This document shows positions 4,936-63,683 of a stretch of 64,000 nt of DNA, in pieces. The DNA is taken from NCBI GenBank assembly GCA_947494155.1, contig CANLTW010000001.1, positions 84,231 through 148,230 of the forward strand, in the 5' to 3' direction. Below the pieces are notes generated by a model that was given only the letters and a program-made list of their open reading frames with translations, did not search any database and was not told the DNA's origin. The first letter of the stretch is position 1, and each line of letters starts with the position of its first letter. Made by a program: the position numbers and the translations under genes. Source of the DNA: Chlamydiota bacterium. GTDB taxonomy: Bacteria > Chlamydiota > Chlamydiia > Chlamydiales > RGXB01.

Positions 4936-7437
4936 TCAGGGGGTTTTTACCTTATAGAGAATATAGGGCTTTGAGATCCCCTGAAACCTGCGCTCCCCCT
5001 CACATTCGACCTCAATCTGCCCGACAATGTTATCATAGATATTAGTAGTGATCCAAATTTCGCCCCCTTTTGCCTCATCGCAAACCCTGGAAGTAATATT
5101 CACACTAGACCCAATTACAGTAAACTCGCTGTGCTCCTCTGAGCCCATAATCCCCTCAGTGACTTTGGCATAGTGGATGCCAATACCAGCCTCCAAAGCA
5201 ACCTTGTTCTCTGTTTTTCTTTGCTCATTCAGTACAAGTATGTGTTTCTGAATTTCGATTGCAGCCCTTACCGCATTTAATGGACCCTGTGGATTTTCCT
5301 CGGGGACTCCCCAAAGAGCTAATACAGCATCCCCCTCGAATTTATCGATAATCCCCCCATGATTTTTTATTATACTAACGATGTTGTTGAAATAGGTATT
5401 TAGCATCAAAACCATCTGATTAGCCGGCATACTTTCTGTAAGCTCTGTAAATTTTCTGAAGTCTAAAAAGAAAATGGTCGCAAGTACCTGTTTACCGTGC
5501 AAAGAGGCGGCATCCGATAAAATTTTTTCGGCTATTTCAGGCGCTAAAAACTTATTTAAAACACTTCTGGAACGCTCTCCATCTCTCATCCGTTTGAGCA
5601 TGGCCTCAAAGTTTGCAAACAATGTTTTAAGCTCATCCGGTTGATTACTGTACTCCTCCTTAAGAGGAAAATCGGTCTCTTTACCACTTCCAACCGACTG
5701 TACTGCCTCTGCCAAAGTAGTTATGGGCTTTAATACAGAACGCAACAGGTACCAAAGTAAAAAGATGATTGCTGTGGTGAGTACGATTCCAAAGGCGTAG
5801 ATCTCTTCGGTCAAAGATCTCAATAGGCTCTTAATATCCCTGGCCAAATTTTGCAAAATTTCTATTTCGCTGATGCGTAATTTGAATACAAAAAGATCCA
5901 TATCCATATCTTCATAGGGCTGTATACGGAAAAAAATGTACTCATTCCCTAAAGCATCTCTAGTGACCCCATGGGTTACTTTTTTCATTCTCTCTAAAAT
6001 TTCCTTAGAGAGGACGATCTTGTCTTCGATCGACCCATCGGGCCTGTAGGCTTTAAGTACGGAGTCGTTCACCACTAAAAATGTTGATTCTTGAGTGGCA
6101 ACAGCCACTTTTTGCAGGAATTTGGATGCATCGATACCCAGCATGATAGAACCGAATCGCGTCTTATTCGTTTTGGGATCCAAGTAATTTAATTGCAACC
6201 GGTTTCCAATGTACATCCTGCTATCAGCATCATGGTAGATAATCCCCACTCCGCCATTCAGCTTTTCCAAATCATTATCAAAACCGCCACTTATACCTGT
6301 AGGATCGAAAAGCTTAAAAGGTATATCGGGGGAGATCTCCTCCCAAATAAACCCTAAACCTTTAGGGTGGTTCCCTTGTGTTCTGGCAAAACCGTCTGGA
6401 GCTTTCGATGCATCCGGGTCATACCCGAAAATACCTGACAAAAATATCGCGCTGAATTCCCAAATGAAGCGATGTAGATCCCAATTTCTACTCATCTCTT
6501 CATACCGAACCGGGATAATTTCCTGGTTATCTAGGGAATCTTCGGAAATCGTTTCTAATTTTTCGTAAATGCTCTCTCCATCCCTGATCTGCTTTTTTAA
6601 TGGATCAAGCTTAGTTTTTAGCCAATCCTGTGCCTGCGGTGAATCTAGCGCTTCATACAGCTGTTTTGCTTCAGGGGTCAAAAGATTATTATGAACTTTT
6701 TCAATACTGCTGATAAGTGCTTTTGAGATGGCCTGAAATGCAGGGTCATTTTTGACCCAAACGCTGATCTGAAGAGGTTTAATGGGATTCCCTTCTACTG
6801 TTGCTTTTAGGTTTGAGGGATCTAGATTTAAAATATCTTTGGGGTTGAAAAGAATCCAAAAGGCGAAACCCTCAGGTTGATCCTTCAGGCCCGATATGTC
6901 GAAAGGGGTGTAATCTACTAAAGGGCCCATCCATACCGGAATACCAATGTACGGGCCGATCAAATTGCCTTTAGCGTCATACTTGGCAAAAATCTCCACC
7001 CCGGGTGCACCCTCAAAATGCCAAAAACCACTCGCATAGGGTGGCTCTAAAGCATACAGAGCCGTGACATTCCCCTCGTTTTCGACTTGAATAAACTCTA
7101 CCCAAGGATCTATTAAAAGAGCTGATGCTGCAGAAAACCAGTTCCCCTTTTCAGCATTTTCAGGTGTAGGAAGAAACTGACTTTTTACGTATTCATACTG
7201 GTTGATTTTCATCAACAGCATATTTGTTCTTACTTGCGTATCTGAAAGAACAGAGCGCAGATAGCGCTCAAGATTCTCCCTTTTCTCCTCATATTGTCGG
7301 ATAATCTCTTCTTCGACATTCTTTTCCGCTTTATTCAGCTGTTTTGAGATGGTGATTTGCTGGATGGAAATATAAAGAATAAATCCAAGCACAAAAACAA
7401 TACTGACTAAAGAGAGAATTTTGACACGTAAACGCAT
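4936..7437 (-). CDS. Receptor-type class III adenylate/guanylate cyclase (2 TM, large extracytoplasmic domain, HAMP, cyclase)
   Basis: 833 aa. TM1 is ILSLVSIVFVLGFILYI, followed by about 500 aa between TM helices, then TM2 FGIVLTTAIIFLLWYLL and a HAMP-like linker. Cyclase core motifs are FFLDFRKFT, KFEGDAVLALWG and GSSVNITSRV. Confidence 0.8.
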   Translation of the reverse strand: MRLRVKILSLVSIVFVLGFILYISIQQITISKQLNKAEKNVEEEIIRQYEEKRENLERYLRSVLSDTQVRTNMLLMKINQYEYVKSQFLPTPENAEKGNWFSAASALLIDPWVEFIQVENEGNVTALYALEPPYASGFWHFEGAPGVEIFAKYDAKGNLIGPYIGIPVWMGPLVDYTPFDISGLKDQPEGFAFWILFNPKDILNLDPSNLKATVEGNPIKPLQISVWVKNDPAFQAISKALISSIEKVHNNLLTPEAKQLYEALDSPQAQDWLKTKLDPLKKQIRDGESIYEKLETISEDSLDNQEIIPVRYEEMSRNWDLHRFIWEFSAIFLSGIFGYDPDASKAPDGFARTQGNHPKGLGFIWEEISPDIPFKLFDPTGISGGFDNDLEKLNGGVGIIYHDADSRMYIGNRLQLNYLDPKTNKTRFGSIMLGIDASKFLQKVAVATQESTFLVVNDSVLKAYRPDGSIEDKIVLSKEILERMKKVTHGVTRDALGNEYIFFRIQPYEDMDMDLFVFKLRISEIEILQNLARDIKSLLRSLTEEIYAFGIVLTTAIIFLLWYLLRSVLKPITTLAEAVQSVGSGKETDFPLKEEYSNQPDELKTLFANFEAMLKRMRDGERSRSVLNKFLAPEIAEKILSDAASLHGKQVLATIFFLDFRKFTELTESMPANQMVLMLNTYFNNIVSIIKNHGGIIDKFEGDAVLALWGVPEENPQGPLNAVRAAIEIQKHILVLNEQRKTENKVALEAGIGIHYAKVTEGIMGSEEHSEFTVIGSSVNITSRVCDEAKGGEIWITTNIYDNIVGQIEVECEGERRFQGISKPYILYKVKTP

Positions 7438-8459: not shown

Positions 8460-10252
8460 CTGGATAAATGGTTCCTTTCCAAGAAAATAAAGACTTTCTT
8501 GGAAAAATCTTTTTTGGTTTCCAAAAGCTCTTTAAAGGCCTGTGTTGCCAAAAGGATATCTTTTTTAAGATACCCCTTACGAAATTTTGGAAGTATCTTT
8601 TCCAGCATCATCTCTTGAGTCCGCTCAGGATTTTGTAAAATTTCCAAAACAATCTCGTTCAGCTTTTCAGGATCAATACAGGGTGCTAGACCCTCTATCG
8701 ATAGAGACATTTTGGACAGGAAACGGGCCTCAATTCCATAGTTTCTCAACAGTTCCAATACCCTCTCCTCATCTTGATCAAAAGTCGATTCCAAGCGTAA
8801 GCTGCGACTAACGCACTCTGTTTGAATCGATGCATCCATGCGATACATTTGCTCTTTAGCTAAAAAATCCTCAAGAGCATCCAAATCGACAAGAGCCGTT
8901 TTCTCCTCCCATTTAGCAATCAAAAAACCGTCGATAATTAAGATCCCCACAACCTCAATCAAAAAAGATTGTCGTAAAAGCACCCCCTTTTCGCCAAAAG
9001 CGCAACCCTTTTTAAACCCCAAAGCATCTCTAGTCTCCAGCTTTTCTATTGTCTCATTTTTTACCAGACTCCAGTCGGGGGAAAAAAAGGGGGAAATCGA
9101 ATGCTCTCTTGGGGAAGTCGAATGCTCTCTTGGGGAAGTCGAATGCTCTCTTGGGGAAATCGAATGCTCTTCGATAGAAAAGTCCCCCTTTCTTTTTTCC
9201 AGAGGATACTCATACCCATCCCAGCTATGTATTATATGTGCCAAAGAGGACCCACCTTGCTGTGCAAGCAATGCCCTGTCTATCGCCTTTTGGACAATCC
9301 TAAACCAGCTTTTCTCCTCCTTAAGTCGCACTAAACTTTTTTGCGGATGGACATTCACATCCACCAAATCGAACGGAATATCTAAAAAAAGAATCAATGC
9401 GGGATGGGTTTTAGGGGGGAAATGTCTCTGATAAGCCTCAAAAGCAGCCATCTGGATTAAAGGGTTTGAGGCGGTTCTTTGATTTATAAAAAAATATTGC
9501 TGCGCCCTCGTTTTTTGCCCCTCTTGAGAAAGACTTATCAACCCATAACATCTTACCGAGTCCTCTTGAAATTCAAATAGCTGCATTTTTTTTATCCAAG
9601 AGGTGCCAAAAAGGGTTTCAGCTCTCTCTTGAAGAGTTTGTTCAGCCGGGCAATCTAATTCTATTTTTTTATCGATTGTGTAACTAAATCGCACTTTGGG
9701 ATTACAAAGGGCTATTTTCTGCACCATTTTTGTGATCTCCATTGTGGCCCCCTTTACCGTTTTTTGAAACTCCAAACGGGCAGGCACATTATGAAAAAGG
9801 GAATAAATTTCAAATGTCGTTCCTGGTTCTCTGTGACAAGGTGCAGAATCTAAGAGCTTACCAGCTTTTACTTCGACTTTTGTCGCCTCCTGCAAATCTT
9901 GCGGTGCCGTTTTCATTAAAACATGACTAATACTGGCGATAGAAGAAAGCGCCTCCCCTCTAAAACCTAAAGTTTGGATCCCCTTCAGATCCTCTTTTTT
10001 TTGGATTTTACTGGTAGCATGCCTTTCAAAACAAAGCAGAGCGTCCTCTTTAAGCATGCCGATACCGTTGTCCATTATTTTAATGAACTCAAATCCACCC
10101 CCTTTAATGTCGATATGGATAGAGCTGCTTTGGGCATCAATAGAGTTTTCCACGAGCTCTTTTATGCAGCTGGAGGGATTTTCCACCACCTCGCCTGCGG
10201 CTATTAGATTAATTAGGTGCTCTTCTAAAAGATGGATAGATCTACGTTGCAT
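8438..10252 (-). CDS. mutL: DNA mismatch repair protein MutL
   Basis: 604 aa. GHKL ATPase N-terminus (LINLIAAGEVVENPSSCIKELVENSIDA, DNGIGM, LGFRGEAL), then a linker and a C-terminal dimerisation region. Confidence 0.9.
   Translation of the reverse strand: MQRRSIHLLEEHLINLIAAGEVVENPSSCIKELVENSIDAQSSSIHIDIKGGGFEFIKIMDNGIGMLKEDALLCFERHATSKIQKKEDLKGIQTLGFRGEALSSIASISHVLMKTAPQDLQEATKVEVKAGKLLDSAPCHREPGTTFEIYSLFHNVPARLEFQKTVKGATMEITKMVQKIALCNPKVRFSYTIDKKIELDCPAEQTLQERAETLFGTSWIKKMQLFEFQEDSVRCYGLISLSQEGQKTRAQQYFFINQRTASNPLIQMAAFEAYQRHFPPKTHPALILFLDIPFDLVDVNVHPQKSLVRLKEEKSWFRIVQKAIDRALLAQQGGSSLAHIIHSWDGYEYPLEKRKGDFSIEEHSISPREHSTSPREHSTSPREHSISPFFSPDWSLVKNETIEKLETRDALGFKKGCAFGEKGVLLRQSFLIEVVGILIIDGFLIAKWEEKTALVDLDALEDFLAKEQMYRMDASIQTECVSRSLRLESTFDQDEERVLELLRNYGIEARFLSKMSLSIEGLAPCIDPEKLNEIVLEILQNPERTQEMMLEKILPKFRKGYLKKDILLATQAFKELLETKKDFSKKVFIFLERNHLSRCFSCKD
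9090..9170. repeat. In-frame 21-bp tandem repeat, about 3.9 copies, in the mutL linker
   Basis: Units ggggaa(a/g)tcgaatgctctctt begin at 9090, 9111, 9132 and 9153. On the minus strand they encode EHSISPREHSTSPREHSTSPREHSISP. Confidence 0.9.
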
Positions 10253-57742: not shown

Positions 57743-58677
57743 GGGGGTAAAATCTGGACGTTATCCAGATATTGCAATTCATGGACCGAAGGGGTTGCCG
57801 AGAGCCCGTACGCGTATCCACCCTCTTTGAGAGGATCGATTTTTGTGACCACTCCCACATGTAGTCCTCTTGGAAAAATCCCATCTAAGCCCGTAGTGAC
57901 CAGAAGGTCTCCCACCCGGATCAGGTGCTCTGTTCTTAAATCAAAGGGGCCACCCTCGCTATCTGCAAAATCATAATTGAACCCGTAGCCACTTAAGGTG
58001 TCGTAAGCTACCCTCCAACCCGGATTTGCTACCCCTTGAATCACCCCTTTTGCTAAAAGCGCCCCCCTTAATGGTCTCACCTTCTCCAATAAAACCTGAA
58101 TCCAATCATTGGTGAGCTCTTTATGCTCCTGGTTTTTAAAGATCTCCTCCTCTTTTTCTAAAAGATTCTTAAGCTCATAAAGCCTCTCTTCAAGATAGAT
58201 CCCTTTTTTCCCCCGGTCCACGCGCACAGCTATTTGTAATTTCGGGTCTGTAATTAGACGCACAAGGCTCTTTTTTTCTAGCACCTCCTCGATCACCCCC
58301 ACTACCCCTTTACCTAAAACAACGGGGCTTTTTTTTGCGATGACTGTGGCCCCCAATCGTTTGTTATCCGCCTCTCCCCTGTCTACCCAAAGAAAGGAGC
58401 CGAAAGAGATATTTTCCCTAAAGATCACTTTAGCCTGTATCGCATCCCAGTCTTTTAGGTCGTAGTTAAGCTGGTTGCGTATTGCATCCAACTCATCCTT
58501 CAAAAGAAGATTTTCCAAACTTAGTAGCTCAAGTGTACTATCTCCCCCCGCTTGTGCCGAGCTAAAAAACTTTTGCACGCTCGATCTTAGGCGGATCTCT
58601 TTCACAAAAGGGATTTGAAAAATCAAAAATAGGATCAGAGACAAAAATAAGAGTGTAGAACCTAGTTTTTTATCCAT
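57730..58677 (-). CDS. mreC: Cell-shape determining protein MreC
   Basis: N-terminal TM helix and coiled coil, plus the signature VTTGLDGIFPRGLHVGVV. Confidence 0.85.
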   Translation of the reverse strand: MDKKLGSTLLFLSLILFLIFQIPFVKEIRLRSSVQKFFSSAQAGGDSTLELLSLENLLLKDELDAIRNQLNYDLKDWDAIQAKVIFRENISFGSFLWVDRGEADNKRLGATVIAKKSPVVLGKGVVGVIEEVLEKKSLVRLITDPKLQIAVRVDRGKKGIYLEERLYELKNLLEKEEEIFKNQEHKELTNDWIQVLLEKVRPLRGALLAKGVIQGVANPGWRVAYDTLSGYGFNYDFADSEGGPFDLRTEHLIRVGDLLVTTGLDGIFPRGLHVGVVTKIDPLKEGGYAYGLSATPSVHELQYLDNVQILPPQWG

Positions 58678-59848
58678 GACGCAACCTTGAAAAAACCTGT
58701 TTAAGCCGCCCGATGTTTGCCGAGTTTACCCCTAAAACATTTAATCTCGAGTCATCGAGCAAATATATGCTCTCTTTTCTCAACTCCAGAACCGCATCTT
58801 TAGATATTCCCAGATAGGAAAAAAACCCTTTCGCCTCTTGGAACTCTTTTTTATGCTGAATCCAGCCCCCAAATTCTTTCAGTATTAGCTCTCTCATGGC
58901 ACAGCTTCTCAGCCGGTGCTCCTCGAGCTCATCAAGCCAAAGTTTTTTTCTTTTTAAATCTGTTAATACTGTTTTGACAACCAGTGCACCATGCGCCGGT
59001 GGACTAGAATAATTGCGACGTATGATCTGTTTTATAGTGCTTTGCATCCCCTCATGAGTATGACTCCGATTGACAATCATCAGCGCCCCAACCCTTTCCC
59101 TATAGAGATCCATAGTTTTTGAATAGGAGAAGGCAACGCACATCTCGATCCCGCTTTTAAAAAAGGTGTTGACTGCATACCGGTCTTCATCGATTCCATC
59201 TCCAAGCCCTAGATAAGCGATATCAAAGAGAGGTAAAAGCCCCTTTTTGAGACAACAATCTAAAATTAAATCCCATTCACTGTGGGTAAAATCGATCCCG
59301 GTGGGGTTATGGCAACAGCCATGAAGCAAAAGAATGGATCCTTTCTCCAAACGGTGTAAAAAATCAAAAAACTCGCCCTTTTTGGCCGTGTGTGTTGTCC
59401 GATCATAGTAGGGATAGGTTCTCACCTCAAGACCTGCAGCTTTGAACACACCGTGGTGGTTAGCCCATGTGGGGTCCGAGACATAGATGGGATGATTCCA
59501 CTCCAATCTAAGATAATCGGCAAGCACCCTTAGAGCACCAGTCCCCCCTAAAGTCTGTGCTGCTGTAACCAGAGGAGCATTTTCTAAGAAAAGGAGTTTT
59601 TTCGTCTCCTCAAGAAAGTCATGATCCCCCTCGATAGGAAGGTAAGTTTTGGAGACCTCATTCTCGATTAAAAATTCTTCAGCCTCCTTTACCGCTTTTA
59701 AAACGGGGCACTTCCCCTTTTCATCAAGATAGATACCCATTCCCAAATTTATTTTTTCAGAGTTAGGATCTTTGGCCCACATTCTGCCTATCTCAAGCAC
59801 CGGATCGACAGGTTGTGATCCCACATGTTCAAAAAAAAGATGCGTCAT
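58670..59848 (-). CDS. aspC: Aspartate aminotransferase (class I)
   Basis: 392 aa. PLP-lysine motif SYSKTMDLYRERVGAL and N-terminal VDPVLEIG. Confidence 0.85.
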   Translation of the reverse strand: MTHLFFEHVGSQPVDPVLEIGRMWAKDPNSEKINLGMGIYLDEKGKCPVLKAVKEAEEFLIENEVSKTYLPIEGDHDFLEETKKLLFLENAPLVTAAQTLGGTGALRVLADYLRLEWNHPIYVSDPTWANHHGVFKAAGLEVRTYPYYDRTTHTAKKGEFFDFLHRLEKGSILLLHGCCHNPTGIDFTHSEWDLILDCCLKKGLLPLFDIAYLGLGDGIDEDRYAVNTFFKSGIEMCVAFSYSKTMDLYRERVGALMIVNRSHTHEGMQSTIKQIIRRNYSSPPAHGALVVKTVLTDLKRKKLWLDELEEHRLRSCAMRELILKEFGGWIQHKKEFQEAKGFFSYLGISKDAVLELRKESIYLLDDSRLNVLGVNSANIGRLKQVFSRLRHG

Positions 59849-59962
59849 AGAGCCCCTGAATCAAAAAAAGTTTTTTAAACTATTATCTAAAAGTTCACGA
59901 ATAGAGACAACTAGAAAAGTTGTTTATTGGCATGTATTCTTGGAAGTAAAGAAGGGATGAAA

Positions 59963-60035
59963 TGGAGTATAGCGGACTCGAACCGCTGACCCCAACGCTG
60001 CCAGCGTTGGGGTCTACCAACTGAGCTAATACCCC
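59963..60035 (-). tRNA. tRNA-Ala(GGC)-like, D-stem disrupted (possible pseudo-tRNA)
   Basis: It is identical to the copy at 61824..61896 except for two substitutions (GAGCA becomes GACCC at tRNA positions 22-26). These create a C11-C24 mismatch. G3:U70 is retained. Confidence 0.6.
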
Positions 60036-60042
60036 GTCAGAC

Positions 60043-61710
60043 TTATTCCTTACCCTCAACAGCCTCAAGGAAAGCTTGTAGCTGCTTGGATCGGGTGGGA
60101 TGACGCATTTTTCTCAAAGCTTTGGCCTCAATTTGGCGCACCCTTTCACGAGTTACCTTAAATTGCACACCTACCTCTTCAAGAGTTTTCGGTTTTCCGT
60201 CAAGTAAACCGAAACGTTCGATTAATACTGTACGCTCTCTGTCAGTTAATGTAGAGAGAACTTCGTTTATTTTGTCTTTTAAAATTGAATAGCCGGTGGC
60301 ATCCGCTGGCGATTCTGTAGCGGTATCCTCAAGAAAATCACCAAATTGGCTCTCTCCGCTGTCTCCCACTTCTGCTTGTAAAGAGATGGGGTGTTGAGCG
60401 ATACGATAAATCTCACGCACGCGATCAGGTGTCAACCCAAGCTCTTTTGCCAGCTCTTCTGGAGTAGGCTCTTTACCTGTCTCCATCATGAGCTTTTTGG
60501 CCCCCCTTAATACACGATTGATTGTTTCAATCATGTGCACAGGGATACGGATCGTGCGGGCCTGATCGGCAATAGCTCGTGTTACTGCTTGTCGAATCCA
60601 CCAGGTGGCATAAGTAGAAAATTTATAACCTCGGCGGTATTCAAACTTTTCCACAGCCTTCATTAGCCCCATGTTCCCCTCTTCAATCAAATCCAAGAAA
60701 GAAAGGCCACGGTTAGTGTATTTTTTTGCAATCGAGATCACAAGGCGCAGGTTGGACTCTACCATTTCTCTTTTAGCTTCCTGGCTCTTGTCCATCCAGC
60801 GCTGCAACATGCGGACATCTTTTTTATATTCGTCCAATGTCCTTCCGGCAGCAAGCTCTCTTAAAAAAAGTCGGCGTCTGGCAGAAAAAAGTTTTTGCGC
60901 TGCAAAGCGATTTTTTTCAGCTCTAGGGGTAAGATCTTTGATCTCTTTTTCCAAATGCAAAAGTCTGTCGTAGCTTGAGAGGATTACTTCGCCGAAATCT
61001 TCGATCACCGAATATTTCAGGTGCATGCGTCGCAAGTAGGCTTGAGTTCTTATACGACTTTTTTCTATCGCCTCGAGAACTTTGATCCTTTCTGCCTTGT
61101 TGTTATCCACCTTTTTCATTTTCAAAAGCTGCGGCTCTAAAAAAGCATCCTCTTTAGAAAGGAGCTCCTCTAGCTTAGGCAACAATTGCATGAACTTAGC
61201 GCGGTCTTCCACCTCTTTTTCAGCAGCAATTTTATCAAAACGTTCTTTACCAGCGATAAGGTAACGGATTATGGAGCAAGTCTCCCTTTCGGAATAGCGA
61301 AAGCGCATAATGATTCTTTCGATCTGCATTTGCGCTTTTTCAATCCTTTTGGAAATTTCGACCTCTTCCTCGCGAGTAAGAAGGGGAAAAGAACCCATCT
61401 CTTTGAGATACATCCTAACGGGATCATCTGCAGCTGCATCGGAGCGTTTTGGTAAGAGTTCTAATTCTTTAGCCTCTTTTTTACGCTCTTTTTGCTTCTC
61501 AATCTCTGCTTGATTGTAGATCTGGATATCCATCCCACTCAAGAAAATCAATACTTGATCGATCTCTTCCGCCGTGTCAAATGTCATCGGAAGGATATCA
61601 TTGATCTCTTCGTAGGTGATGAATCCCTGTTCCTTAGCAACAGCGACCAGCTCCTCGATTTTTTGCTGATATTGAGGATCCGTGTGTTGGTTGTCGGATG
61701 GCTTGCTCAT
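60043..61710 (-). CDS. rpoD: RNA polymerase major sigma factor, copy 1 (variant)
   Basis: Regions 1.2 to 4.2 are present ([40 protein letters not shown]). Start taken at MSKPS (ATG 61710), preceded by aaaggagact. The track ORF extends to 61743. Confidence 0.9.
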
Positions 61711-61733
61711 AGTCTCCTTTAGTGAAAAAAGGT

Positions 61734-61762
61734 TTTTTATCAACTACCTAGTCCAGTGACAA
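61734..61762 (-). promoter_or_regulatory. Candidate sigma-70-type promoter for rpoD copy 1 (TTGTCA-17-TAAAAA)
   Basis: Read on the minus strand. The -35 hexamer (61762-61757) straddles the edge of the duplicated segment. A Shine-Dalgarno AGGAG follows. Confidence 0.3.
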
Positions 61763-61823
61763 TAGAGACAACTAGAAAAGTTGTTTCTTTACGTGTGTTT
61801 TTAGAATTAAAGAAAGGATTAAA

Positions 61824-61896
61824 TGGAGTATAGCGGACTCGAACCGCTGACCCCAACGCTGCCAGCGTTGTGCTCTACCAACTGAGCTAATACCCC
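61824..61896 (-). tRNA. tRNA-Ala(GGC)
   Basis: Hand-folded. Acceptor GGGGTAT/ATACTCC with G3:U70 and A73. D arm GCTC-AGTTGGTA-GAGC. Anticodon arm CAACG-CTGGCAG-CGTTG. T arm AGCGG-TTCGAGT-CCGCT. Confidence 0.9.
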
Positions 61897-61903
61897 GTCA
61901 GAC

Positions 61904-63571
61904 TTATTCCTTCCCCTCAACAGCCTCAAGGAAAGCTTGTAGCTGCTTGGATCGGGTGGGATGACGCATTTTTCTCAAAGCTTTGGCCTCAATTTGGCGC
62001 ACCCTTTCACGAGTTACCTTAAATTGCACACCTACCTCTTCGAGAGTTTTCGGTTTTCCGTCAAGTAAACCGAAACGTTCGATTAATACTGTACGCTCTC
62101 TGTCAGTTAATGTCGAGAGAACTTCGTTCATTTTATCTTTTAGGATCGAATATCCTGTAGCATCTGCAGGGGACTCGGTAGCGGTATCCTCAAGGAAATC
62201 ACCAAATTGACTCTCTCCGCTGTCTCCCACTTCTGCTTGCAAGGAGATCGGATGTTGAGCAATTCGATAAATCTCACGCACCCTATCCGGAGTCAACCCA
62301 AGCTCTTTAGCAAGCTCCTCGGGCGTCGGCTCCTTACCTGTCTCCATCATGAGCTTTTTAGCGCCCCTTAATACACGGTTGATAGTCTCAATCATGTGTA
62401 CAGGGATACGGATCGTGCGAGCCTGATCGGCAATCGCTCGTGTTACTGCTTGTCGAATCCACCAGGTGGCATAGGTAGAGAATTTATACCCGCGTCGGTA
62501 TTCAAATTTTTCCACCGCCTTCATTAACCCCATGTTCCCCTCTTGGATCAGATCCAAGAAAGAAAGGCCACGGTTCGTGTATTTTTTCGCAATCGAGATC
62601 ACAAGGCGCAGGTTGGACTCTACCATCTCTCTTTTAGCTTCCTGGCTCTTGTCCATCCAGCGCTGCAACATGCGGACATCTTTTTTATATTCGTCCAATG
62701 TCCTTCCGGCAGCAAGCTCTCTTAAAAATAGACGTCGTCTCGCCGAAAAAAGTTTTTGCGCTGCAAAGCGATTTTTTTCTGCTCTTGGAATAAGATCTTT
62801 GATCTCTTTTTCCAAATGCAAAAGCCTGTCATAGCTTGAGAGGATTACTTCGCCGAAATCTTCAATTACCGAATATTTCAGGTGCATGCGTCGCAAGTAG
62901 GCTTGTGTTCTTATACGGCTTTTTTCTATCGCCTCAAGGACTTTGATCCTTTCAGCCTTATTATTTTCCACCTCTTTCATTTTCAGAAGCTGCGGCTCTA
63001 AAAAAGCATCCTCTTTAGAAAGGAGCTCCTCTAGTTTAGGCAATAGTTGCATGAATTTGGCGCGGTCTTCCACCTCTTTTTCGGCAACAATTTTATCAAA
63101 GCGTTCTTTGCCGGAGATGAGATAACGGATGATTGAGCAGGTCTCTCTTTCAGAGTAACGGAAGCGCATGATGATCCTTTCGATCTGCATTTGCGCTTTT
63201 TCGATCCTTTTGGAAATTTCGACCTCTTCTTCGCGAGTAAGAAGGGGGACAGAACCCATCTCTTTAAGATACATCCTAACGGGATCATCTGCAGCTGCAT
63301 CAGAGCGTTTTGGCAAGAGTTCTAATTCTTTAGCCTCTTTTTTACGCTCTTTTTGCTTCTCAATCTCTGCTTGATTGTAGATCTGGATATCCATCCCACT
63401 TAAGAAAATCAATACTTGATCGATCTCTTCCGCAGTGTCAAATGTCATCGGAAGGATATCATTGATCTCTTCGTAGGTGATGAATCCCTGTTCCTTAGCA
63501 ACAGCGACCAGCTCCTCGATTTTTTGCTGATATTGAGGATCCGTGTGTTGGTTTTCGGATGGTTTGCTCAT
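61904..63571 (-). CDS. rpoD: RNA polymerase major sigma factor, copy 2 (canonical motifs)
   Basis: 555 aa counted from MSKPS (ATG 63571; an in-frame ATG at 63577 is also possible). Canonical [11 protein letters not shown] and [17 protein letters not shown]. Confidence 0.92.
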
Positions 63572-63580
63572 ATTCATGAT

Positions 63581-63609
63581 ATTGTTATATGAATATCACT
63601 TAATGTCAA
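63581..63609 (-). promoter_or_regulatory. Candidate promoter for rpoD copy 2 (perfect TTGACA -35; weak -10; no Shine-Dalgarno before the ATG)
   Basis: The minus strand reads TTGACA (63609-63604) ttaagtgatattcatataacaatatc ATG. The -10 assignment is ambiguous (TAACAA or AACAAT at 16-17 nt spacing). Confidence 0.25.
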
Positions 63610-63683
63610 GTTTTGAACAGTCCACCTCCGCTAGCCCTCATAAAAGAAAAAAAAGGGGGGAGCCTTCTGACGCCCGTTTTCGT

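Follow-up and report, generated by a model that had tools for sequence, protein, structure and literature searches.

Tandem rpoD genes for the primary sigma factor in an uncultured chlamydia: a second copy that varies between strains and is probably recombinant

Introduction

Extra primary-like sigma factors are well known in other phyla, among them the group 2 paralogues HrdA-D of Streptomyces and SigB-E of cyanobacteria. The tufA and tufB genes of enterobacteria are duplicated housekeeping genes that are kept similar by gene conversion. The subject of the present work is a locus of an uncultured chlamydia in which two copies of rpoD, the gene for the primary sigma factor sigma-66, lie in tandem and are each followed by a tRNA-Ala(GGC) gene. 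The locus belongs to a stretch of 64,000 nucleotides (contig CANLTW010000001.1, positions 84,231 to 148,230), here called the window, which is part of a 293-kb metagenome scaffold.

Accounts of gene regulation in chlamydiae usually make do with very few sigma factors, and a second sigma-66 would enlarge this small set. Two articles give three sigma factors for the Chlamydiaceae and two for environmental chlamydiae (PMC4652624; PMC10597470). An earlier note on this DNA, made from the letters alone, took the phylum to have one major sigma factor, and this agrees with the literature searched, which describes neither a second sigma-66 gene nor a duplicated rpoD in Chlamydiae; absence there is no proof. 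Apparent duplicates can really be acquisitions from relatives, as is argued by Tria and Martin (2021, PMC8536544).

The second rpoD is classed here as a recombinant copy of the primary sigma gene, placed in tandem and present in only some strains. In the favoured explanation, held with a probability of about 0.55, the tandem is real, is a mosaic produced by recombination and varies between strains, the promoter-proximal copy B being the housekeeping gene and copy A an extra or back-up sigma-66 under somewhat relaxed constraint.

The tandem arrangement

Coordinates were taken from the open reading frame (ORF) listing, ARAGORN and a repeat finder, and all features of the module lie on the minus strand (Table 1). 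In the order of transcription these are rpoD-B, tRNA-Ala(GGC), a 113-nt intergenic stretch, rpoD-A, tRNA-Ala(GGC), a 114-nt stretch, aspC and mreC. At an offset of 1861, ungapped identity rises from a background of about 0.25 to 0.8–1.0 exactly over 59900–61711 versus 61761–63572. Together with the ORF listing and ARAGORN, this confirms the head-to-tail rpoD and tRNA-Ala modules with a period of 1861 bp that had been described in the earlier note. Both tRNA genes begin 7 nt past the rpoD stop codon, and an inverted repeat with 6-bp arms and a 5-nt loop (acaact-agaaa-agttgt) accompanies each copy; these two features had likewise been reported, and both were located.

Two further features had been missed. 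The tRNA genes differ at two positions, 60010 and 60012, and the 49 nt separating the repeats (61712–61760) are a diverged copy of the aspC leader. Since this stretch is an aspC-leader copy, the duplicated unit is the full 1861 bp. It begins directly behind the start codon of rpoD and extends to that of aspC; TATG(A) is common to both contexts at the breakpoint, and the start of copy A coincides exactly with the position expected for the aspC start codon. Copy A has thereby lost the rpoD promoter and gained an aspC-type leader with an AAGGAG ribosome-binding site.

The tandem is a genuine 1861-bp arrangement in a natural population. The exact copy-A protein is also encoded on a 3.9-kb contig (L083) of a different assembly, GCA_964201685.1. 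From within rpoD-B onward it keeps the order of the window, over tRNA-B, the junction, rpoD-A and tRNA-A and on into aspC, with 99.5% identity and no gaps. This contig carries four variants of its own within the module, including a further D-stem change in tRNA-A, and its junction sequence is identical to that of the window. The junction overlaps either parental context by only 4–5 nt, far below any assembly k-mer, and joins to the rpoD start codon an aspC-type leader that is not the same as the leader before aspC on the same contig. As the junction sequence is also absent from every single-copy relative compared, it cannot have been made by assembler mixing of single-copy strains. The earlier note had allowed that the two copies might be alleles of one rpoD from mixed strains, placed in tandem by the assembler. 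The window is indeed a metagenome scaffold, related strains co-occur in such samples and assemblies break near rpoD (L168, L170–L172 and L165), but the independent recovery of an identical junction, on the same path and with private variants, makes such an artefact extremely improbable.

The JGI metagenome contigs contain no exact match to the junction (TTCACTAAAGGAGACTATGAGYAA). Contig L165, 99.8% identical to the window, was considered as a further example of the tandem and rejected, since it breaks off at nt 407 of rpoD-B and this point is no edge of a shared repeat.

Table 1. Features of the rpoD tandem and its surroundings, in the order of transcription
Feature	Coordinates	Strand	Source
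Promoter-like site of rpoD-B (TTGACA, 17 nt, AACAAT)	63581..63609	-	promoter scan and conservation
rpoD copy B, 555 aa (557 aa from an alternative ATG at 63577)	61904..63571	-	ORF listing
tRNA-Ala(GGC) copy B, canonical	61824..61896	-	ARAGORN, Rfam
Spacer 3' of tRNA-B, with 6-bp inverted repeat at 61768-61784	61761..61823	-	comparison with relatives
Duplication junction, aspC-leader copy fused at the start codon to rpoD-A	61711..61760	-	alignment to the sequence upstream of aspC
rpoD copy A, 555 aa, apparent derived mosaic	60043..61710	-	ORF listing, site patterns, sliding comparisons
tRNA-Ala(GGC) copy A, apparently degenerating	59963..60035	-	ARAGORN, Rfam
Spacer and aspC leader 3' of copy A, with inverted repeat at 59907-59923 and promoter-like site at 59882-59910	59849..59962	-	promoter scan
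5' five-sixths of aspC, in L001-like tract (whole aspC 58670-59848)	58863..59848	-	identity comparison

Distribution among relatives

Both copies match only metagenome-assembled genomes of chlamydiae. Six species-level representatives with 97–99.6% RpoD identity (L001–L006) have one rpoD each, followed by the same tRNA. The metagenome contig L084 is 98–100% identical to the window in both flanks, which makes it conspecific with the window, and has a single rpoD. Besides L084, at least 12 contigs of the clade (at least 95% amino-acid identity) have rpoD directly followed by aspC, and contigs that encode a protein of L001 type are among those with this order. Exact-protein look-ups of cluster members for more tandem contigs returned only contigs that are single-copy or too short to judge. 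With the tandem observed in two assemblies versus at least a dozen single-copy, it is a presence/absence polymorphism, found in only some strains of one species. In the count of rpoD genes in related chlamydiae, which the earlier note had suggested, the tandem recurs in L083 and the gene is single in L084 and at least 12 close relatives.

The 2-kb JGI contig Ga0453080_0157492 (L164, positions 1–1966) comes from a lineage related to L002. Its promoter-proximal rpoD is L002-like in the 5' half, shows zero differences from copy A over nt 1001–1600 and has every A-private site from nt 945 onward, including E343 and I481. Behind this gene come a canonical tRNA and a B-type spacer, and the contig then breaks off after 10 nt of a junction-type leader. 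L164 may represent a second tandem-bearing species or a single-copy genome whose sole sigma-66 has E343, and 10 nt cannot decide between them.

A more distant chlamydial lineage has two tandem rpoD genes at the same locus (JGI contig Ga0172367_10001303, L142:2244–5800). Their products of 553 and 557 amino acids are 75% identical and both score above the chlamydial RpoD cut-off (933 and 1003 bits); tRNA-Ala(GGC), aspC and mreC follow the second rpoD only. Where 151 other chlamydial RpoD agree to at least 98%, the first copy deviates at 39 columns, the next highest count being 6. One of these deviations is a T-to-Q change in region 2.4 at the position of E. coli T440, a residue implicated in −12 recognition. 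As a candidate for a truly diverged, additional sigma factor of the phylum, the L142 pair would be better than the window.

Mosaic origin of copy A

The two rpoD copies differ at 114 of 1668 nt, 102 of these at third codon positions, and the proteins differ at nine of 555 residues (6, 108, 153, 162, 200, 202, 261, 343 and 481). The latter count is that of the earlier note, whose difference counts for individual blocks are also right to within one difference. Synonymous divergence (dS) between A and B is 0.37 and non-synonymous divergence (dN) 0.0077, giving an omega (dN/dS) of 0.02 by the Nei-Gojobori method. The proportion of synonymous differences is 0.03–0.1 at both ends of the gene and 0.5–0.6 in two central stretches. 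Third-position differences are unevenly spread over nt 1–399, 400–1500 and 1501–1665 (chi-square P = 3e-6), and in a Sawyer-type permutation of the variable sites the sum of squared concordant runs has P < 1e-4, though the longest concordant fragment reaches only P = 0.066. The patchwork that the earlier note had seen is thus significant.

This patchwork appears to be the result of recombination between lineages and not of conversion between A and B. Copy B, together with its upstream flank, tRNA and spacer, is of L084 type, with 97.7% identity in the gene and an identical spacer. In copy A, nt 1–400 belong to the B/L084/L001 group, with 12 differences from each versus 23 from L002; nt ~400–1500 group with L002, a different species; and nt 1500–1668 are of L001 type. 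When the five sequences A, B, L084, L001 and L002 are compared, 42 sites unite A with L002 to the exclusion of B, L084 and L001, and not one unites A with B to the exclusion of the other three. In the centre of rpoD, dS is 0.24 between A and L002, 0.33 between B and L001 and 0.54 between A and B. For aspC, mreC and the next ORF (orf282), synonymous sites are saturated between the window and L002, and dS to L001 is 0.13–0.58. A centre dS of 0.24 next to saturated flanks means that the core of A and the L002 gene share an ancestor much younger than that of the genomes. The junction leader is also nearest to the aspC leader of L002, with about 6 differences in 50 nt.

The 3' end of copy A has another affinity. 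From about 60060 to 58863, that is from the end of A into aspC, the window is 97–100% identical to L001 and 81–93% to L084, and past 58863, still within aspC, it returns to 97–100% identity with L084. Inside this tract the aspC leader (59849–59899) is identical to that of L001, and 59849–59962 differ from it only at 59955. In L083 the switch between L001 and L084 types is at about 59590. Since this 3' block leaves the repeat and runs on for about 1 kb in aspC, it cannot have been donated by copy B. On these groupings, the sequence of copy A would be drawn from at least three related lineages, and the locus seems to be reshuffled by homologous recombination within a complex of such lineages, with the tandem module moving along.

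The single rpoD of L084 has two L002/A-like patches of its own, at gene nt 586–747 and 1098–1290 (L084:4586–4747 and 5098–5290), which indicates that rpoD segments are exchanged between lineages even in single-copy genomes.

Two other routes to the present structure were considered and rejected. Campbell-type single-crossover integration of a circularised donor fragment predicts a donor-type 3' end of B together with a recipient-type 3' end of A, and only the latter is observed. Ancient duplication with reciprocal loss alone does not fit the centre of A and the junction, whose similarity to L002 far exceeds that between the two genomes.

The two proteins and selection on each copy

By their profile matches, both products are unambiguous members of the chlamydial RpoD equivalog family. 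The Pfam models r1_1, r1_2, r2, r3 and r4 match A and B, which score 1043.5 and 1052.8 bits with NCBIfam NF004562 (cut-off 779) and 388.1 and 389.8 bits with TIGR02393 (cut-off 354); with RpoS models both stay under the cut-offs. There are no differences between A and B in regions 2.4 and 4.2, which are responsible for DNA recognition, so their promoter specificity should match. Copy B has no private replacement and no deviation at columns conserved at 98% or more, and in all these respects looks like the conserved, ancestral-type housekeeping sigma-66 gene.

Eight of the nine residue differences are derived in copy A. One of them, Q343E, lies in region 2.2 and corresponds to Q406 of E. coli sigma-70, to which the alignment has a constant offset of +63. 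This residue is Q in 150 of 150 distinct chlamydial RpoD and E in copy A; V108 of region 1.2, conserved in 147 of the 150, is F in copy A. The remaining changes affect the N-terminal segment, the non-conserved region (five replacements) and I481 at the start of region 4. The product of A would therefore keep the promoter-recognition surfaces of B and differ from it by the Q-to-E and V-to-F changes and by those in the non-conserved region. At the ultra-conserved columns copy A is not an outlier, having two deviations, as 38 of 152 sequences have at least two.

Residue Q406 is one of four listed core-binding residues of sigma-70, D403, Q406, E407 and N409 (bioRxiv 10.1101/2020.09.07.285775). Copy B retains all four and copy A three, with E at the Q406 position. 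As E. coli RpoS naturally has E at the same position (LDLIEEGN), Q343E is compatible with a working sigma factor. RpoS has the lowest core affinity reported among E. coli sigmas and carries substitutions at the core interface (PMC5389655).

Private sites number 33 in A, of which nine are non-synonymous (in eight residues) and 24 synonymous; B has nine, all synonymous. Omega is about 0.10 on the A branch versus 0.028 on the other four branches pooled (11:107; Fisher P = 0.016). The A-branch ratio of 9:24 is nevertheless far below the neutral expectation (binomial P = 4e-10), and the 13 A-private sites not common to L164 (5:8) also reject neutrality (P = 0.002). The earlier note regarded both copies as intact and selected. 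Both frames are intact and replacements are far below neutral; the low dN/dS between the copies is another matter, because A and B diverged largely as orthologues in separate lineages, and it is no proof that both are now under selection.

The two tRNA-Ala copies

ARAGORN assigns the anticodon ggc to both tRNAs, and G3 and U70 are readable in both. With the Rfam tRNA model, tRNA-B scores 65.9 bits and tRNA-A 51.8 bits (gathering score 29). Positions 1–67 of tRNA-B are identical to the tRNA of L001–L006 and L084, except that L003–L006 differ at one acceptor-stem base, and its D stem has four intact base pairs. The D stem of tRNA-A is broken: G24C creates a C11–C24 mismatch, marked as a non-standard pair by the Rfam model, and is accompanied by A26C; neither change occurs in any of the orthologues compared. 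In L083, an extra C13G gives tRNA-A two D-stem mismatches and lowers its score to 46.8 bits. The redundant tRNA-A thus appears to be decaying.

The distance of 7 nt between the rpoD stop codon and tRNA-Ala(GGC) recurs in L001–L006 and L084 and is about 50 nt in L142. This spacing implies that the tRNA would be processed from the 3' end of the rpoD transcript.

Promoters, leaders and transcription signals

The promoter-like site before rpoD-B has the best promoter-scan score in the region, with 10 of 12 matches. A distance of 9 nt separates its second hexamer from the ATG at 63571, and a Shine-Dalgarno sequence is absent; the mRNA of B would therefore be almost leaderless. The 48 nt upstream of this ATG (63572–63619) are conserved in L001–L006 and the sequence farther upstream is not, which suggests an almost leaderless rpoD mRNA throughout this clade.

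In the aspC leader, the promoter-like site consists of TTGTCT, 17 nt and GATAAT, and both hexamers are kept in L001, L002 and L084. The junction has GGTAGT in place of the second hexamer GATAAT, and keeps AAGGAG at 61714–61719, 3 nt before the ATG of copy A. The promoter scan found no promoter-like match in the junction, nor between B and A on the minus strand, and the scan of the gene strand between B and A found no terminator-like site.

A role of the inverted repeat or of the intergenic RNA as a terminator or stable structure was considered and rejected, since their predicted folds do not surpass those of shuffled sequence (z = −0.12 and −0.40) and the gene strand has no terminator-like site. 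The inverted repeat and the CTCTATT that follows it are conserved in L001, L002, L084 and L164. The longer gene-strand motif AAACAACTTTTCTAGTTGTCTCTATT (59900–59925 and 61761–61786), which contains the 6-bp inverted repeat, is conserved in the same four, unlike the surrounding spacer. The 3' arm of the repeat supplies TTGTCT, the first hexamer of the aspC promoter-like site, and the motif looks more promoter- or operator-like than terminator-like.

Elsewhere in the window, positions 9090–9170 hold 3.9 tandem copies of the 21-nt unit GGGGAAATCGAATGCTCTCTT, with 96% matches.

Origin and function of the second copy

The start-codon-to-start-codon junction requires that a true tandem duplication occurred once, somewhere in the species complex. 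The module would then have moved and been reshaped by homologous recombination as the lineages of this complex recombined. For its expression, the sequence suggests the following course: transcription from the promoter of B would read through tRNA-B, the tRNA would be cut out of the transcript, copy A would be translated from its own Shine-Dalgarno sequence, and transcription would run on into tRNA-A, aspC and mreC. The net effect is most likely an extra or back-up supply of sigma-66, and not a new promoter specificity.

Several points weigh against this explanation. The comparison sequences are all metagenome contigs, in which strain-switching by the assembler may mimic breakpoints, especially the switches in aspC of the window and L083; individual breakpoints have no bearing on the junction or on the overall groupings. 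The private-site counts were made by parsimony on recombining sequences, and 17 of the 33 A "private" sites are also present in L164, so that some of them, including Q343E, may predate the life of A as a second copy. With two deviations at ultra-conserved columns, copy A is in the range of normal orthologues, and the case for relaxed constraint is modest. Finally, read-through, tRNA excision and translation of A are inferred from the sequence.

The earlier note proposed an ancient duplication within the lineage, with both copies selected, homogenised by conversion between them and expressed differently as a regulatory layer. Such a history would account for ORFs of A and B that are intact in two strains, for the overall omega of 0.02 with an A-branch value well under 1, and for the patchy divergence. 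It would also suit the apparent difference in translation start, almost leaderless in B and with a Shine-Dalgarno sequence in A, and the RpoS residue at position 343; the L142 pair demonstrates that a tandem can persist, and L164 may add a tandem in a second species. Against it, the conspecific L084 and at least 12 close relatives are single-copy, and A is nearer to L002 than to B, though the L002 genome is far more distant than those of L084 and L001. The count of 42 sites versus 0 leaves no derived site exclusive to A and B, and the 3' block taken for a converted tract leaves the repeat and reaches into aspC. The notion of old paralogues homogenised by mutual conversion does not fit these observations. 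Regions 2.4 and 4.2 are identical in the two copies, A has no promoter-like match of its own and its companion tRNA is decaying, and the model as a whole is judged improbable. A new regulatory layer from the second copy is possible, but redundancy of that copy, under mildly relaxed constraint, is more likely.

Copy A might also be a functionless passenger of inter-strain recombination that is being lost, its ORF still intact through recent arrival. Tandem repeats are readily lost through unequal crossing-over, and the module is indeed present or absent among strains. The D-stem mismatches of tRNA-A, with one more in L083, the loss of the aspC-type second hexamer in the junction, the altered invariant core-binding residue and the higher omega of the A branch all point in the same direction. 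Nevertheless, neutrality is rejected both by all private sites of A and by the subset not found in L164, and two strains with differences elsewhere encode the same A protein. Moreover, the A-type 3' half, with E343 and I481, occurs in the promoter-proximal rpoD of L164, which suggests that the variant is functional, and E is the natural residue of RpoS at this position. The passenger explanation is consequently considered rather unlikely. A more active part for copy A, doubtful on the present evidence, would be that of a working second sigma-66 isoform which recognizes the same promoters and, through the RpoS-like Q-to-E change and the five replacements in the non-conserved region, has altered binding to core polymerase or to sigma-66 partners that touch this region. 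As A would be translated from a Shine-Dalgarno leader and B from an almost leaderless mRNA, the ratio of isoforms could shift with physiology or development, and the gene would be kept and exchanged by part of a freshwater species complex. If this were true, and taken with the L142 pair, some environmental chlamydiae would have evolved additional primary-like sigma factors.

The favoured explanation, a strain-variable mosaic whose second copy serves as an extra or back-up sigma-66, carries a caution for the reading of single genomes, in which apparent old paralogues under gene conversion can be a mosaic of inter-lineage recombination, and in which a low dN/dS between such copies does not prove that both are functional. 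The strain-variable copy is also natural material for the study of sigma-66 dosage, of core affinity (Q406E) and of partners of the non-conserved region.

Comparison with known systems

The products of A and B both resemble the chlamydial sigma-66 (NF004562/TIGR02393) in having regions 1.1, 1.2, 2, 3 and 4 and scores far above the equivalog cut-offs, and copy B cannot be told apart from its orthologues in related species. Published descriptions have one such gene per chlamydial genome versus two here, and copy A has E for the invariant Q of region 2.2.

As with tufA and tufB, there are two near-identical copies of an essential information-processing gene whose similarity is distributed in tracts. 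Unlike in the tuf pair, the tracts trace to other lineages, the copies are adjacent and the arrangement is not fixed in the species.

The group 2 sigma factors (RpoS, HrdA-D and SigB-E) are comparable as near-primary second sigmas with the same or nearly the same promoter-recognition residues, and at the position of sigma-70 Q406 copy A and RpoS agree in having E, the sole RpoS-like residue found. Copy A is, however, 98% identical to the primary factor, retains region 1.1 and the full non-conserved region, and has no recognisable regulatory signals belonging to it.

The situation set out by Tria and Martin (2021) is similar in that the divergent core of A and the junction have their nearer counterpart at the rpoD locus of another species and not in the resident copy. 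It differs in that the acquired copy stands here in tandem at the homologous locus, behind a start-codon-to-start-codon duplication junction.

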